In this document: positions 2,298 to 56,936 of the stretch, in pieces | Position numbering within the stretch: the first letter of the stretch is position 1 | Layout of the letters: every line of letters begins with the position of its first letter | From: Octopus vulgaris | Lineage: Eukaryota | Direction: 5' to 3' | Assembly (NCBI GenBank): GCA_951406725.2 | Contig: OX597841.1 | Coordinates: 12,710,001-12,774,000 of the forward strand | Length of the DNA stretch: 64,000 bases | Notes under the pieces: model-generated | Database searches by the model: none | What the model saw: only the letters and a program-made list of their open reading frames with translations | What the model was told of the DNA's origin: nothing | Program-made: the position numbers and the translations under genes

Positions 2298-2361
2298 TAG
2301 AGTAACCAATGGTTTCGCTTCTGGAAAGTCCTAGACCACGTGAACGACACATTAGACTCTA
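2298..2361 (-). ncRNA. Degenerate hammerhead motif (same family as 2993 and 6011)
   Basis: TAGAGT-CTAATGT-...-GAAA-CC ATT GG-TT-ACTCTA; stem I and III intact, core decayed. Confidence 0.55.
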
Positions 2362-2455
2362 AAGCCGAAGACAATATATGTGTGTGTGCTTGTATATATA
2401 TATATATATATATTGTTAAAAGTAATATAATATGTGACAATTATTCGGTAGCCAT

Positions 2456-2516
2456 GATAAAACTCCGAGTTTCGGATGCCGTGGGGGAAATCCACGCCGC
2501 CATCTCTTCAGTTATC
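2456..2516 (-). ncRNA. Minimal type-I hammerhead ribozyme motif, intact core
   Basis: Minus strand: GATAA-CTGAAGA-[GATG..CGTGG loop CCACG..CATCC]-GAAA-CTC G GAG-TT-TTATC; 5-bp stem I, near-palindromic stem III, GUU site. Confidence 0.8.
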
Positions 2517-2674
2517 CGGCCATCAGAAAAATAATTGTCACATATTACACTTGCAGACAAATTCCTCTATTTACATAACATCGAGGTCTCTTTCTTTCTT
2601 TTGTTGTCTTACCATTTTCATCAATATATATATATATATATATATATATACATATATATATATAACACTTTATG

Positions 2675-2925
2675 GATGGATACCCAGGAAACCCTATAAA
2701 CCGGTCTTCACCAGGAAAAAAATATATACTTTCTGTAAATCATAAATCCGAAAGAGATTTATGTATATATGAACCGACCGTAACTATCTTCATCTAAGTA
2801 CTCCTCTAAAGTACTTCATCTAAAGTACTTCGAGTGCGCTTCCCTTTCGGATTTATGATTCACAGAAGTTATATATTTTTTCCTGGTGAAGGCAAGTTTA
2901 TGGGGTTATCCTGGGTACCCGTCCC
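2675..2925. repeat. Inverted repeat, ~80-bp arms (MITE-like or inner part of nested palindrome)
   Basis: GGATACCCAGGA...AATCATAAATCCGAAAG (2675-2757) mirrors CTTTCGGATTTATGATT...TCCTGGGTACCCGTCC (2843-2925). Confidence 0.75.
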
Positions 2926-2992
2926 TAAAGGGTTTTATATATATATATACATATATACGTGCATACACACACATATATTGTTTTCGGCTTTT

Positions 2993-3052
2993 GAGTCTAA
3001 CGAGATGTTGACGTGGTCGAGGTCTTTCTGGATGCGAGACCATTGGTCACTC
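2993..3052 (+). ncRNA. Degenerate hammerhead motif (inverted partner of 2298-2361)
   Basis: GAGT-CTAACGA-...-GAGA-CC ATT GG-TC-ACTC. Confidence 0.55.
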
Positions 3053-3374
3053 TTGAAACGGTCATACGGCATCACCTCTGAATATCTTATTGCTTATTTT
3101 GATTATATATATATATATATATATACAGAGAGAGAGAGAGAGATTGTTATATTTCGGGACCTTCATTTTTTCCTTACCGAATAAACGCACGCACTGGCAA
3201 AACAAATACATTAACGTATAGAGAGACAAATACATACGTACGTACATTCACATACATGTATACATAGACAAACACACTTGTCTATATATATATATATATA
3301 TATGTGACCTCGTGTGTACCGTTGGTGATTTTTTTCCCTCTGTCTTCCCTTCTCTGGATCTTTCCTTCTCTTAT

Positions 3375-3409
3375 GTTTCTGACGAAGAGCTCCGCTCGAA
3401 ACGTTAAAC
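3375..3409 (+). ncRNA. Minimal hammerhead ribozyme motif, intact core
   Basis: GTTT-CTGACGA-A-GAGC TCC GCTC-GAAA-CG-TT-AAAC; palindromic ACGT stem III typical of Penelope-type minimal hammerheads. Confidence 0.8.
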
Positions 3410-52790: not shown

Positions 52791-53209
52791 TATGTAAAAA
52801 AAAAAAAAAGGTAAAGCTACCTTCTTGAGTGATGCTGACACACAAGGGTTGGTTTCTTGGTTTCCATGATGTATATATTCTTCACCTGGATGGGACGCAA
52901 GTCCCTGGCAGGATTACTCACTTTTACCATCTTAACCCTTTTGGTACCATATTTATTTTGAGATGCTCTGTGCTTCTTTCAATTAATTTTAAATATAACA
53001 AAGAATTTAGTAAAATAATGTGGGTCCCCGATTTATCTTTTTGTGTCCATGGAACCCACAAAAATCTAATAGGGATCCCGGTTGAGAACCCGTACTCTGT
53101 AAGAATCAGATCATCGCTACGAAGGAATTCTGCAAACAGCCTGTCAAAACTCATCTGTTATGAACCTGGAGGACATTAGTAAAGAGAAGCAAGGCTGGTG
53201 TCTGGATGC

Positions 53210-53320
53210 TGGTTTCCTGAACAGATGATGCTCAGATGCGACCGAATAAGGAGGACAGGGATGCTGATCAACCCGTTCAAAGCCACAGTCATGCACAGCA
53301 GCCATTGCGACTGGAAACTT
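53210..53320 (-). mobile_element. mariner transposase remnant
   Basis: [31 protein letters not shown] is a decayed HPPYSPDLAPSDYHLF region. Confidence 0.6.
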
Positions 53321-53677
53321 CTTGCTACACAGCAACACCTGCACCCATATGTGTACAAACGCACACACATATATAAACATATATACACACATATATATGC
53401 TTGTGTATATATATATATATATATATATATATACACACACATGCATATATATATATACACATGCATATATATATATACATATACATATGCATCTACATAC
53501 ATCATACATACATATATATATATATATATATAAACGGCGGTGCATCACCATGGCCGCAGCTCTGAGCTGAAACTAGAGAATAAAAAAAAATTAAATAAAA
53601 ATATATATATATATATATATATATATATATATATATATATATATATATATATATATACATACATATATATATATATA

Positions 53678-54160
53678 AATTTTATTTTGTAATGAGATAA
53701 AAAAAAAAACGAAGGCAGTGTAGATTTTAGAACATTTATAGATAGAAGGTCTTACAGCTGTTTCCAGGATATTAATTATATCCCTTCATCGGAGATGGTG
53801 TGAGGGGATGGTTAAGCAATAGTTAATAGAGAGTGAGGTAGAGGAAATAAAAGAAAATAGATGAGAGATATGTAGGGATATTGCATTTGTAGATCCATTT
53901 TTTTAGGCAGAATGGTATATATGTAAGATTCCATATATATACCATTCTACCCAAAAAATGGATCTACAAATTCAATATCCTCCACCACACTCTCTGTTTT
54001 GTTTCCCATCTAAATCAATTATTACTTAACCATCCTCTCACACCATCTGATGAAGGGATATAATTAATAAATATCCTGGTAACAGCTGTGAGACCTTCTT
54101 TCTATAAATGTTCTAATATCTACACTGCCTTCGTTTTTTTATCTCATTACACAAATAATT
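53678..54160. repeat. ~480-bp imperfect foldback with a hammerhead motif in each arm (head-to-head)
   Basis: Arms mirror around ~53927; - arm 53750-53795 TCT-CCGATGA-AG-GGATAT..ATATCC-TG-GAAA-CAGCTG-TA-AGA; + arm 54047-54093 CTGATGA...GTAA-CAGCTG-TG-AGA. Confidence 0.8.
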
Positions 54161-55776
54161 AAAGTGCTTAATATAATGAGTAAGTAATTAATTATAGCAA
54201 TGCAAAGTATTTAAGTTTCGATTAAGCATAATTCTTTTAATTATCCACTGAGATCATCAAGAATTGTGTATATTATTAATTATAGTAATTCTTCAATTAT
54301 CATATAATAATCTTAATTCCTATAAAAGGGTATAATATAAACATAAATAGGTTTCTAATTATCTAATCCATTATTTTCATTCTTTAGTTATCTAACGCAG
54401 TCATTAATAATTGTATATATTATTATTATTAATTATAATAATTTTTAATTATTATATAACAAGGCTAATTCATTTATAAGAGATTATTACAATGAATAAA
54501 TAGATATTTGGTTGTCTTTTCTGCATTTTTATTTTCTAATTACCCAGTGAGATGCTCCGTGGTTGTCTGTGTTGTAGAATATTCTTCAGTTATTATAAAA
54601 TATGTTCAACTCCTATCAAAGGGTTAATTATATTAAATAAACAAATAAGTAATTAATTAATGCAACGTAAAGTGTGTAAGTTTCTATAAAGCGTCACATA
54701 GAATTATTATGTATAGATTGATTCTTTAAGTTATCAATTAAGCATAACGAAGCATTCATTCTTGTCTGTAGTTTTTGTTTTTTAGATATCCAGTGAAGTC
54801 ATCAGTTTTAGGGGACAAACAATCGTTTTCTATATAAGGTTGTTTTTGTTTTTGTAGATTTATAATTGTGAAAAAATGTGGAATTAGTTTGGAATTTCAT
54901 ATTTTATTTTTATAAACGGTGCTGGTGGCACATAAGAGAACCATTCGAACATGGCCGTTGTCAGTGCCGCCCTGACTGGCTTCCATGCCGGTGGCATGTA
55001 AAAAGCACCATCCAATCGTGGCCGTTGCCTGCCTCACCTGGTCCCCGTGCCGGTGGCACGTAAAAAGCACCATCCGACCGTGGCCGTTTGCCAGACTTGT
55101 CTGGCACCTGTGCAGGTGGCACGTAAAAAGCACCCACTACACTCATGGAGTGGTTGGCGTTAAGAAGGGCATCCAGCCGTAGAAACATTGCCAGATCAGA
55201 CTGGGCCTGGTGCAGCCTTCTAGCTTCCCAGACCCCAGTTGCACCGTCCAACCCATGCCAGCATGGAAAGAGGACGCTAAACGATGATGATGATGATGAT
55301 GATGAAACTAAATTAATTATTCAATGACGTCACTCTTGATTAAATGAATGAATGTCTCTCAAGTTAAATTTGGTTTGGTCTTTCCTTTTGTTAGTGTTTT
55401 TTAACAGCTAGAATTTTTTCAGATGTTGCTACACATCGCTGGTCACAATGCGCTTTGCATTGTTTTAGCCTTCAAGTGATGCCACCCCGCTAGCTAAGTG
55501 AGCAAGCCAACAGAAGAAAGAGTGAGAGAAAGTTGTGGCGAAAGAGTACAGCAGGGATCGCCACCACCCCCTGCCGGAGCCTCGTGGAGCTTTAGATGTT
55601 TTTGCTCAATAAACTCTCACAACGCCCGGTCTGGGAATCGAAACCGTGATCCTCCGACCGCGAGTTCGCTGCCCTGACAACGTGATAAAAGTCATTAATG
55701 TGATTTTCTCAATATATATATATATATATATATATATATATATATAACTTTATATTATTGGAAAACCTATATGAAA

Positions 55777-55862
55777 TTAGCTGAAGATTACTCGACATAT
55801 TAAATCTGCTGTAATATTTACAGCTTTTAATAAAATGTTGTAGTATGAAACAATTGTACTAA
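55777..55862 (+). ncRNA. Minimal hammerhead ribozyme motif, intact core, sense to TIKI intron
   Basis: TTAG-CTGAAGA(55781)-long stem II (TACT..CGACAT/ATGTTG..AGTA, inner GCTGTAA/TTACAGC)-GAAA(55847)-CAATTG-TA-CTAA; predicted cut after A55858. Confidence 0.78.
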
Positions 55863-56901
55863 ATTACCGGATCCATTCTTGTTGCTTATTATTTTTTTCA
55901 TTATAATCACCCCGCAAATTTTTATGGATAACACCATACAAAATTCTGGTGCATCTAAATTAAGTACCATATTCATTTGAATCTAAATTGTTGCTGAACT
56001 TATATATATATATATATATGTATACGTATATGTATATATATATATATGTATATCAATAGTTGTGTGTGCGTGTTTGTTTGTGCCTGTGTGTGTGTATGTG
56101 TGTGCGTGTTTGTGTATGTGTGTGTGTGTGTCTGTGTGTGTGTGTATCTGTGTGTGTGTGTCTGTGTCCATATTTACATATACATTCACTGCACACACAC
56201 ACACACACACAAAGCTACAGAGAAAGAGGCGTGGCAAGGCATTAACTGTGTCTGAAAACAACAAGTGCCTGACCTAAAGTTCTCTCTTGGAAGTTTTGTG
56301 AGTGAGTGAGGCAGGGGGGGGGGGGGGCATAAACAGTCCCCAGGTTCCGCTCCACCACCACCACCACCCTCAATTCACTCACCCCCACAGCAGGTGCTTT
56401 GACTGTGAAGCCTAGGGTGCACAGACAAGACACCCTGTCTCCAGAGTGAGGCAGATAACTTTGCTGCAGGGTGGGGGTGGGGTGGAATTGTGGTGAGCTG
56501 GTTGATGGTTTTACCAAACACTCAGACACACAAACCACACCACCCCACCCCCCACCATCCCCAACACTCTCTGTCCTTCCCTGATCTCCCCCACCCATCA
56601 GCCCACTGTCTCTCAAACTGATTGACATATAACTTCTATCTTGAGAAGCAAACCCTCACTCACTTTTCACCTCTGTTTCTGTAAGATACGCCCAGCGTAA
56701 CATATATGTGTGTGTGTGTGTCTGTGTATATATACATATATATATATGTATGTATTTACTTTATTATAGACATGCATATATCTATCTATCTATCTATCTA
56801 TATATATATATATATATATATATATAAAATGTGACCGCGTGTGTACTGTTGGCGATTTTTTTTCCCCTGTCTTCCCTTCTCTGGATCTTTCCTTCTCCTA
56901 T

Positions 56902-56936
56902 GTTTCCGACGAAGAGCTCCGCTCGAAACGTTAAAC
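56902..56936 (+). ncRNA. Hammerhead motif, U4C variant of 3375-3409
   Basis: GTTT-CCGACGA-A-GAGCTCCGCTC-GAAACGTT-AAAC, within a ~310-bp copy (56829-57136) of element 3302-3612. Confidence 0.72.

Follow-up and report, generated by a model that had tools for sequence, protein, structure and literature searches.

The small hammerhead motifs in an octopus TIKI gene are real, mostly ordinary and probably mark 3' ends of Penelope-like retrotransposons

What are the many small hammerhead motifs in the TA-rich tracts of one Octopus vulgaris gene, and how did they get there? The 64,000-nucleotide stretch analysed here (the window) was credited in an initial annotation with about 13 complete type I layouts. 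We scanned it for the core CYGANGA...GAAA...UH with stems I and II of at least 3 bp and a short or palindromic stem III. Seven of the 13 previously listed motifs had an intact core and three stems, and the other six were broken. Thirty local dinucleotide shuffles of the window gave a mean of 0.03 motifs and a maximum of 1, so that the real frequency stands well above the shuffled control. The many small hammerhead motifs in this gene are real, and they are mostly ordinary. The units of the window and the coding exons of the host gene are as follows.

2280..2387, minus strand: family A; old head-to-head pair, left arm, with a decayed hammerhead (core from 2355, two core changes) and its 3' end at (TA)n
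2412..2623, minus strand: family C stub enclosed by the two A arms; core 2511 intact, inverted tail piece attached, stem III ACUCnGAGU, H17=U
2965..3053, plus strand: family A; right arm of that pair, its hammerhead likewise decayed (core from 2997; one change in the core; GAAA to GAGA)
3052..3105, plus strand: family J; 3' half of a hammerhead, comprising GAAA, stem III and a tail that ends at (TA)n
3304..3504, plus strand: family B stub flanked by (TA)n on both sides; core 3379 intact, stem III ACGU, H17=U
4528..4638, plus strand: family D stub; inverted tail tip fused to an intact hammerhead, core 4571, CCGACGA
4733..4925, both strands: family E fold-back unit; two head-to-head arms (70 nt, 94% complementary, 3-nt loop, tail on a single arm) holding broken motifs 4860 on the minus strand (GAAA to AAAA) and 4866 on the plus strand (5' strand of stem I missing at the fold-back junction)
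6005..6075, plus strand: relative of family A; core 6015 intact, stem I without pairing
14750..15313, plus strand: coding exon 2 of the host gene, a TIKI metalloprotease homologue
21832..21894, plus strand: family E fragment in (TA)n; inverted tail tip fused to a hammerhead 3' half
23245..23467, plus strand: family F stub; intact core 23276, stem III ACGAUCGU
41085..41319, both strands: family H fold-back unit; two hammerhead 3' halves, arms 41178-41236 and 41259-41317
42480..42640, minus strand: family I, putative half hammerhead
53678..54230, both strands: family G head-to-head unit; 53792 on the minus strand intact (CCGAUGA, stem III ACAGCUGU), 54047 on the plus strand broken (GAAA to GUAA, UH to UG)
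55747..56000, plus strand: family H stub flanked by (TA)n on both sides; core 55781 intact, stem II long, stem III ACAAUUGU
56827..57034, plus strand: family B stub flanked by (TA)n on both sides; core 56906 intact, CCGACGA
58662..58994, plus strand: coding exon 3 of the TIKI homologue

The CUGANGA core was found in four of the seven intact motifs, but the other three (4571, 53792 and 56906) have CCGANGA. Palindromic stems III and (TA)n borders were seen as described earlier. The half motifs at 21850 and 41210/41265 are genuine fragments of families E and H, respectively. The putative half motif at 42595 (family I) matched only itself among all loci compared, and the half hammerhead of family J had been overlooked. 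The number of families, given as about nine, was right (9-10), but they are not all unrelated. Families H and J group together by clustering, and motifs 2298, 2993 and 6011 form the single family A, in which 2298 and 2993 are both arms of one inverted pair. An Rfam search of the window gave 0 matches at the gathering score.

The motifs do lie in introns 1 and 2 of one gene, the TIKI homologue, whose exon 1 is approximately 1.7 kb upstream of the window start. However, their location in one gene is meaningless because the motif density is genome-wide. A feature-blind genome sample contained 20 motifs in 519,900 bases, against 1 in 10 shuffles. Scaled from this sample of about 520 kb, the genome likely holds about 10^5 intact minimal hammerhead motifs. 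Genome-wide copy families were recovered as well, with 234 to 3,208 first-look candidates per family query. It is very improbable that the host keeps the motifs as intronic self-cleaving regulators of TIKI pre-mRNA, as could be supposed from five of the seven intact motifs being in sense orientation within introns 1 and 2 and from the seven motifs in the window against 2.5 expected from the genome sample (P=0.013). The window has 32.5 (TA)n tracts per 10 kb against 12.2 in the sample, and the motif rate per tract is the same in both, without any excess. Six of the 13 motifs in the window are broken, and each family tested is a dispersed repeat. Rare changes affected 46/2,986 core positions (1.54%) and 445/25,489 other positions (1.75%; P=0.46). 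This indicates that, once inserted, the core decays at the same pace as the flanking positions, which also argues against maintenance by the host.

We consider it highly probable that each unit is a short stub from the 3' end of a Penelope-like retrotransposon (PLE) and carries the minimal hammerhead of that element. This was shown for six of the ten families and is likely for the other four. Penelope RT/GIY-YIG coding was absent from the window, as reported before, in tblastn searches with Neptune- and Hydra-type proteins and with a 96-sequence profile. When other copies of the families were followed in the upstream direction, we found GIY-YIG endonuclease (EN) coding on the same strand, upstream of the terminal unit, in B, C, E, G, H and J, and reached RT as well as EN for B, E and H. 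The proposed Penelope connection was thus borne out, whereas the label "non-autonomous, retrozyme-like" is not supported for these six families, which are the 3' ends of longer elements.

One partner is Neptune-like (B) and five are Hydra-like (C, E, G, H and J). The family B partner consists of RT (DKG, YIDD), a CX4CxxC linker and GIY-YIG, with about 2 kb of CA-rich UTR between it and the unit; of four upstream stretches, two held RT and EN, one held the thumb and one held nothing. The family E upstream query gave 921 candidates, and three of four upstream stretches encoded RT (YRDD), CxCX5C and GIY-YIG. The B and E partners examined contain frameshifts or stops. For family H, RT and EN were present in 3/30 loci and also in L359. 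Co-oriented upstream EN was present in 6/30 family G loci, in two of them without an intervening (TA)7. Endonuclease coding was found in two loci of family J (L227 and L230), and a Hydra-type endonuclease end in one locus only of family C (L125); for C and J the C-terminal part alone was seen. In the whole genome there were 6,136 GIY-YIG candidates, many of them within 781-aa open frames with RVT_1 and GIY-YIG. The 3' ends of these 781-aa elements share the layout of hammerhead, tail and (TA)n.

The partners were compared with the PLE clades in the part of Craig et al. 2021 (PMC8557442) used here, which gives the features of the Hydra clade and lists Hydra-1_Obim from Octopus bimaculoides as one of its members. 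Partners of E, G, H, J and C lack both cysteines inside GIY-YIG, as in the Hydra clade, and carry CxxC/CxH motifs that surround the conserved E and N; the clade was assigned from motifs. The CxCX5C linker is clear in the E and H partners and decayed in G. Among 96 full-length homologues of the E RT, DKT was present in 62, the N-terminal RWK in 44 and CxCX5C in 73. DKT was also seen in L074; the sequence recovered for the E and H partners does not extend to the N-terminus. The (TA)n targets and the presence of a hammerhead are likewise shared with this clade. The octopus genome has at least five of these Hydra-like families, against one octopus family in that source, and differs from it in long UTRs (approximately 1-3 kb) and in tails of approximately 60-100 nt instead of 30-40 bp. 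The B partner and the 781-aa family agree with the Neptune clade in DKG, the CX4CxxC linker, the cysteines inside GIY-YIG, the C-terminal EN and the microsatellite targets, although this assignment is by motif only because Nematis has the same linker motif.

Type I hammerheads, units of 100-300 bp and coexisting PLEs could also suggest non-LTR retrozymes amplified via circular RNAs that are released from tandem arrays. In the parts compared of Cervera and de la Pena 2020 (PMC7229834) and Li et al. 2026 (10.64898/2026.07.22.740005), metazoan non-LTR retrozymes resemble the octopus units in the type I hammerhead, in the short, dispersed, non-coding unit and in being PLE-derived or PLE-moved. However, head-to-tail arrays were not found: direct neighbours within 1.2 kb occurred in only 5/273 family-locus sets, and the TRF rows listed for the window included no 150-450 bp hammerhead tandem array. 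In the only trimer examined (L180), (TA)n separates units that have one private change in common, as in a local duplication. The octopus motifs are minimal rather than canonical, the units form head-to-head mirrors, and six families terminate coding elements. The retrozyme origin, which we regard as very unlikely, is largely refuted for the window families.

The insertion anatomy agrees with Penelope 3'-end stubs. Of the copies, 41/51 in D, 14/14 in E and 29/45 in B have (TA)4 within 30 nt past the 3' end, confirming the proposed (TA)n targeting; among the matches of C, G and H, only 9/81, 5/13 and 22/42, respectively, are followed by it at the matched 3' end, and many of these matches stop inside the element or at the reference edge. 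A target-site duplication is unreadable within (TA)n. The 3' end is fixed and 5' truncation is frequent, with 5'-end ladders in B, E, H and G that range, in B and E, from tens of bases to more than 1.5 kb. The 5' ends of B cluster at an initiator-like TCATTC 65-90 nt upstream, and those of D and E within 20 nt of the core. Two discrete 3' ends were seen in D (18/51 copies near +70, 20/51 near +140) and in E (5/14 near +70, 7/14 near +135). Two RT start sites have been described as producing the tail of PLEs (PMC11167929). The tail, approximately 60-100 nt, is on one end only. An inverted arm lies immediately upstream in 38/47 F and 32/55 H copies. Among 14 family F pairs there were 11 different spacings, and six locus-private variants were shared by both arms; therefore, each insertion made its own mirror. 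In family E, 24 of the 30 best loci share one common junction, which the query itself contained, and other E copies have different junctions. An inverted 5'-truncated arm, a one-sided tail and (TA)n targets are also given for PLEs in the part of PMC8557442 used here.

Inverted terminal arms and TA borders are reminiscent of MITEs, that is, DNA transposons in which the hammerhead resemblance would be incidental. The variable junctions, the locus-private variants on both arms, the one-sided tail and the covarying stems speak against such an origin, which is scarcely credible overall and is refuted for B, C, E, G, H and J by the RT/GIY-YIG coding link.

For Penelope stubs, we believe that the element's own endonuclease and reverse transcriptase likely paste the stub into (TA)n, where it then decays. 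Judging from the layout and from other species, the RT-GIY-YIG protein would nick a (TA)n tract and prime reverse transcription there, at either of two fixed sites, the short end or the tail end, 40-190 nt downstream of the hammerhead. Synthesis would mostly halt after 100-300 nt, often shortly beyond the hammerhead, and the new strand would often fold back on itself, giving a head-to-head mirror arm and a one-sided tail. Since each insertion would renew the TA borders, later families would accumulate in the same tracts. Selection would maintain the hammerhead in active master elements and not in stubs, as is suggested by stems that covary between subfamilies. The expected covariation was found in the H/J alignment (42 distinct sequences; 40 chosen by tail and homology, 3 hand-added), where both sides had changed in 14/29 pairs. 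In this alignment 93.7% of cells were paired, a level reached in 0/500 shuffles, in a test that leaves sequence relatedness uncontrolled. Most stems III are palindromes with a loop of 0-1 nt, so that a single copy on its own is not expected to fold into an active monomer. Judged in the same way, cleavage would depend on another copy or on assistance by a protein.

Families A, D, F and I could possibly have non-autonomous masters. No coding partner was found for them among 11, 59, 64 and 1 loci with a match, respectively. For F, D and A, true mini-elements, whose own short hammerhead RNAs are moved in trans by Penelope proteins, seem unlikely to us, though less so than the alternatives above. 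Family F is young (copies 97-99% identical), and none of its 30 best loci reaches more than approximately 100 nt upstream of the core. The 5' ends of D lie at -19..-1 in 24/51 incidental copies. Non-autonomous PLEs of Chlamydomonas are described in the part of PMC8557442 used here. However, family E had been the strongest contender for a fixed mini-element and appeared alike until the upstream query led to RT and EN, and the anatomy of F, D and A is the same as in the coding-linked families.

A further reading, which we think improbable, is that reverse transcription usually starts in the upstream pLTR and runs off the RNA 5' end just past the ribozyme. This would yield about 10^5 intact motifs in dozens of families, with mass production of perfect fold-backs and of solo-pLTR mini-insertions; a young family like F might spread without a coding master, and intronic units might act as protein-assisted pre-mRNA cutters or long double-stranded editing substrates.

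Hammerhead-bearing Penelope ends are known as a kind; the octopus motif count and the pile-up of 5' ends near the ribozyme are new here. The scale and the map are useful, since Rfam does not see these motifs; they come from many Neptune- and Hydra-type families, in which intact 781-aa elements and young copies of near-identical sequence occur. In cephalopod repeat libraries, short palindromes flanked by TA may represent Penelope ends and not MITEs. The junctions are a natural series for the question of how the inverted arm and the tail originate. Minimal hammerheads of metazoan PLE pLTRs were surveyed by Cervera and De la Pena 2014 (PMC4209133), and the part of that survey used here, which does not mention octopus, reports many families per genome and mostly single copies, "probably related to truncated PLEs". 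The octopus motifs agree with it in the short or palindromic helix III, the short helix I, the many unrelated families in one genome, the mostly single copies and the opposite-strand pairs 100-700 bp apart. Their density exceeds its counts (approximately 9,000 in Xenopus tropicalis and 4,000 in coelacanth), which were obtained with different descriptors. Unlike the surveyed motifs, several octopus families have A-U or U.U instead of G-C at 10.1-11.1, and there are family-wide CCGANGA cores and very long helices II (H and F). The core variants (U4C, U3-A8, A6U) are a natural series for the question of the Penelope hammerhead's role. As in the survey, the U3-A8 core variant is present in the octopus genome, and C at 15.2 was found in 19/20 sampled motifs.

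The window (G000:C28:12710001-12774000 of the 2.80-Gb assembly) contains host coding exons only from a homologue of the TIKI metalloprotease (Pfam TraB_PrgY_gumN). Its exons were 100% identical to a 538-aa protein labelled Octopus vulgaris by its source. The exon map of the predicted gene places every listed hammerhead motif in introns 1 and 2. The initial annotation had described about 13 complete type I hammerheads; a descriptor scan found seven of them intact, whereas 30 block shuffles of the window averaged 0.03 and never gave more than 1. The other six were damaged in the core or stem I. 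The seven were obtained with the looser descriptor, and a stricter stem II requirement gave four. When one core mismatch was tolerated, there were nine motifs versus 1.4 in the shuffles.

Exons of the predicted TIKI homologue and intact type I hammerheads (window coordinates)
-1831 to -1691, exon
14750-15313, exon
58662-58994, exon
2511, minus strand, intact hammerhead
3379, plus strand, intact hammerhead
4571, plus strand, intact hammerhead
23276, plus strand, intact hammerhead
53792, minus strand, intact hammerhead
55781, plus strand, intact hammerhead
56906, plus strand, intact hammerhead

The Rfam E-value search of the window was dominated by microsatellite microRNA matches, and hammerheads were absent among the 150 of 540 matches listed; none was found in 2270-3500 at E<=10, and none at the gathering threshold. 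Single-strand MFE folds gave a hammerhead in 0/8 motifs, which is expected for minimal motifs and uninformative. About nine families had been proposed. Ten are now labelled, among them family J, a half motif that had been missed.

Families of hammerhead-bearing units and their motif positions in the window
2298, 2993, 6011: family A
3375, 56902: family B
2456: family C
4567: family D
4817, 4866, 21850: family E
23273: family F
53750, 54047: family G
55777, 41210/41265: family H
42595: family I
3052-3105 (half motif): family J

These families accumulate in common TA tracts. The A arms at 2299-2387 and 2965-3053 are 84% complementary, later insertions lie between them, and the right arm adjoins J. 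A further TA-flanked unit (2660-2935) is nested between the A arms, with inverted arms at 2624-2694/2904-2974 and 2717-2757/2841-2881; no hammerhead was recognised in it, and core-like CUGGUGA occurs on both arms. At 59545-59600, about 55 nt form a perfect hairpin with CUGAGGA near the loop but without hammerhead stems. About 70 nt of the same sequence follow the (TA)n of both B copies (3505-3620 and 57035-57135), which suggests either a common repeat downstream or an ancient duplication inside the gene. As stated initially, no Penelope coding sequence was found in the window. The segments at 38759-39499 and 11378-11700, both on the minus strand, are LINE reverse-transcriptase remnants rather than Penelope sequence, presumably RTE-like and a restriction-endonuclease-type end.

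The background sample (519,900 bases) consisted of 10-kb stretches placed at round coordinates, 52 in number. The sample contained 20 C-core motifs in 15 clusters, and ten shuffles gave one in total. The density of 38 per Mb corresponds to about 1.1 x 10^5 motifs genome-wide (Poisson 95% about 66,000-166,000, from a sample without strict length weighting). The window has seven motifs versus 2.5 expected from the sample (P=0.013). Since it is also richer in (TA)5 tracts (32.5 versus 12.2 per 10 kb), its motif rate per tract equals that of the sample, and the TIKI gene is not special as a hammerhead site. A (TA)5 tract lay within 250 nt downstream of 14/20 sampled motifs versus 18% of random positions. 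Outside the demands of the descriptor, 19/20 had C at 15.2 and 16/20 a fully self-complementary stem III. Over all collected loci, which are enriched for the searched families, 389 strict motifs formed 47 clusters; some single U-core clusters may be due to chance, as U-core shuffles gave 0-4 per sample. Copy families exist genome-wide, the first-look candidates per query (lower bounds, not copy numbers) being at least 1,798 for B, 622 for C, 2,345 for H, 1,151 for F, 1,473 for D, 268 for A/J, 234 for E (at least 921 for its upstream part), and 3,208 for G. The initial A search gave mostly family J, which leaves few copies for A.

The 3' ends of the copies were fixed, with two such ends about 65 nt apart in D and E, and the 5' ends were variable. 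Many copies had a mirror arm in head-to-head orientation, and the tail was confined to one arm; head-to-head counts for C, D, and E were inflated because the queries contained an inverted part. Family F showed 11 core-to-core spacings in 14 pairs and six locus-private variants on both arms, and family H showed 12 spacings in 12 pairs and 13 such variants. This indicates that the mirror is made afresh at each insertion. E resembled a fixed 193-bp unit, with one junction in 24/30 best loci. However, there were two sequence variants at that junction, with arms alike within each, incidental copies had other junctions, and a coding master exists for E. The inverted 5'-truncated arm and one-sided tail match the layout of Penelope elements described in the part of PMC8557442 consulted. 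Junction palindromes of these elements have been interpreted as self-priming (PMC3846280, in part). Two start sites of the reverse transcriptase (RT) set the tail, and cleavage is AT-rich (PMC11167929).

A GIY-YIG endonuclease (EN) search of the genome gave 6,136 candidates, and many of the 150 scored sit in 781-aa open frames. One such frame carries RVT_1 and GIY-YIG, followed by a 1-kb UTR, a hammerhead-like motif, a short tail, and (TA)n. Linkage was tested by walking upstream from other copies of the window families. H reached a GIY-YIG end in 3/30 loci and in locus L359, and RT plus EN in L302. For G, a co-oriented EN lay 1.1-1.7 kb upstream in 6/30 loci (from an upstream query). J was joined to EN coding sequence in two loci, and C in one. 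B led through a CA-rich UTR to RT and EN in 2/4 fetched stretches, which are at most 80 kb apart and could be local duplicates, and to the thumb in a third; L399 begins within the same EN. E led to EN in 3/4 stretches, with RT in one, across some 3 kb of TA/TG-rich UTR. By the motifs in the consulted part of PMC8557442, the B partner would be Neptune-like and the E, G, H, J, and C partners Hydra-like; its File S1 includes Hydra-1_Obim with (TA)n preference.

No coding partner was found for A, D, F, or I among the collected loci with a match. Penelope-like element (PLE) coding sequence does occur in the neighbourhood of D and F copies (L207, L183, L166, and L170 were read), but (TA)n intervenes and, in the loci read, the coding unit terminates with a hammerhead or tail of its own, which indicates nesting instead of linkage; the C pair adjoining GIY-YIG in L089 is nested too. 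The initial observation was confirmed in part, and the initial reading of non-autonomous, retrozyme-like elements was supported in part, six families reaching EN coding sequence. The sole trimer read (F in L180) was a local duplication rather than a retrozyme array. Whole fold-back insertions were tandemly duplicated via TA borders at L417-L420 (C27:8.17-8.19 Mb), L242/L243, and L180. An E insertion of about 8 kb (L444 with L430 and L440, C5:8.628-8.637 Mb) is head to head with both arms extending into the endonuclease, and one arm contains an RTE/CR1-like LINE fragment.

From these sequence comparisons, we believe that the units are stubs of Penelope terminal repeats (pLTRs) with minimal hammerhead motifs, of a kind already known but with new members; A, D, F, and I are unlinked. 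The literature searched, which largely covers non-subscription papers, contained no description of hammerheads in Penelope elements of octopus. The words 'hammerhead' and 'ribozyme' do not occur in the main text of the O. vulgaris repeat annotation (PMC13282606), whose supplements and library may bear on the point. In the giant squid, 235 Rfam Hammerhead_1 matches were counted (PMC6962438). Many hammerhead families per genome have been published, with more than 6,000 motifs and 16 families in Acropora and, per a section title, up to 120,000 motifs in the axolotl (PMC7229834, in part).

The 5' ends of short copies clustered near the ribozyme, as judged from BLAST ends and reading of aligned rows. 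They lay at -19 to -1 of the core in 24/51 incidental copies of D, at -12 to 0 in 8/14 copies of E, and at -88 to -67 in 25/45 copies of B, adjoining a TCATTC motif that we take to be initiator-like. This clustering was absent from the literature passages compared and may be new. Since transcription of Penelope begins within the upstream pLTR (PMC2377424, in part), the pile-up would be accounted for if RT initiates internally and then runs off; hot spots of fold-back, pausing of the RT, and BLAST end effects are further explanations.

In H/J, both sides of the stems were changed in 14/29 pairs, and core columns were invariant or nearly so. This covariation indicates that master lineages keep the fold. 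For the stubs, copies were selected by their tails, and those with at least 85% similarity to the consensus outside the core entered the comparison (338/486 tail hits). The core was retained in 271/338, and rare changes affected 1.54% of core versus 1.75% of other non-CpG positions (P=0.46). Within the limits of the tail/85% filter, there was no sign of selection on the core. Stem III is palindromic without a loop in B, F, G, and H and has a 1-nt centre in C and D, so a monomer would be unable to close the full helix. E has a 4-bp stem III with an 8-nt loop, but a hairpin would lock the fold-back units of this family. U.U is found at the stem II base of the main H and E variants. Such motifs in other species cut poorly, even as dimers (PMC4209133, in part), or depended on the protein of the element to cut, and insertion in vitro did not require cutting (PMC11167929). 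Presence was seen in contigs, which give neither ends nor strand, of four runs guessed to be RNA.

A motif preceded the first (TA)7 in 37/98 EN matches. Several Neptune-like families had no descriptor hammerhead downstream of EN (L345, L353, L361 (the L084/L088 PLE family), L051, L066, and L342), and in some, degenerate GAAACCGG-type halves lay close to the 3' end. One family, a sister of B that is joined to a Neptune-like endonuclease, shares with B the stem II base and the stem III ACGU, has a related tail, and carries a family-wide CUGUNGA core with U at the normally fixed A6, for example in L170 (minus strand, about 780 nt past the EN match) and L041:7171-8100. The youngest PLE family (L057-L090) has the U3-A8 core variant UUGAUAA and stem III ACAUGU (e.g., L072:5383 and L060:2210), many 781-aa open frames, and an upstream ORF of about 350 aa without a Pfam match.
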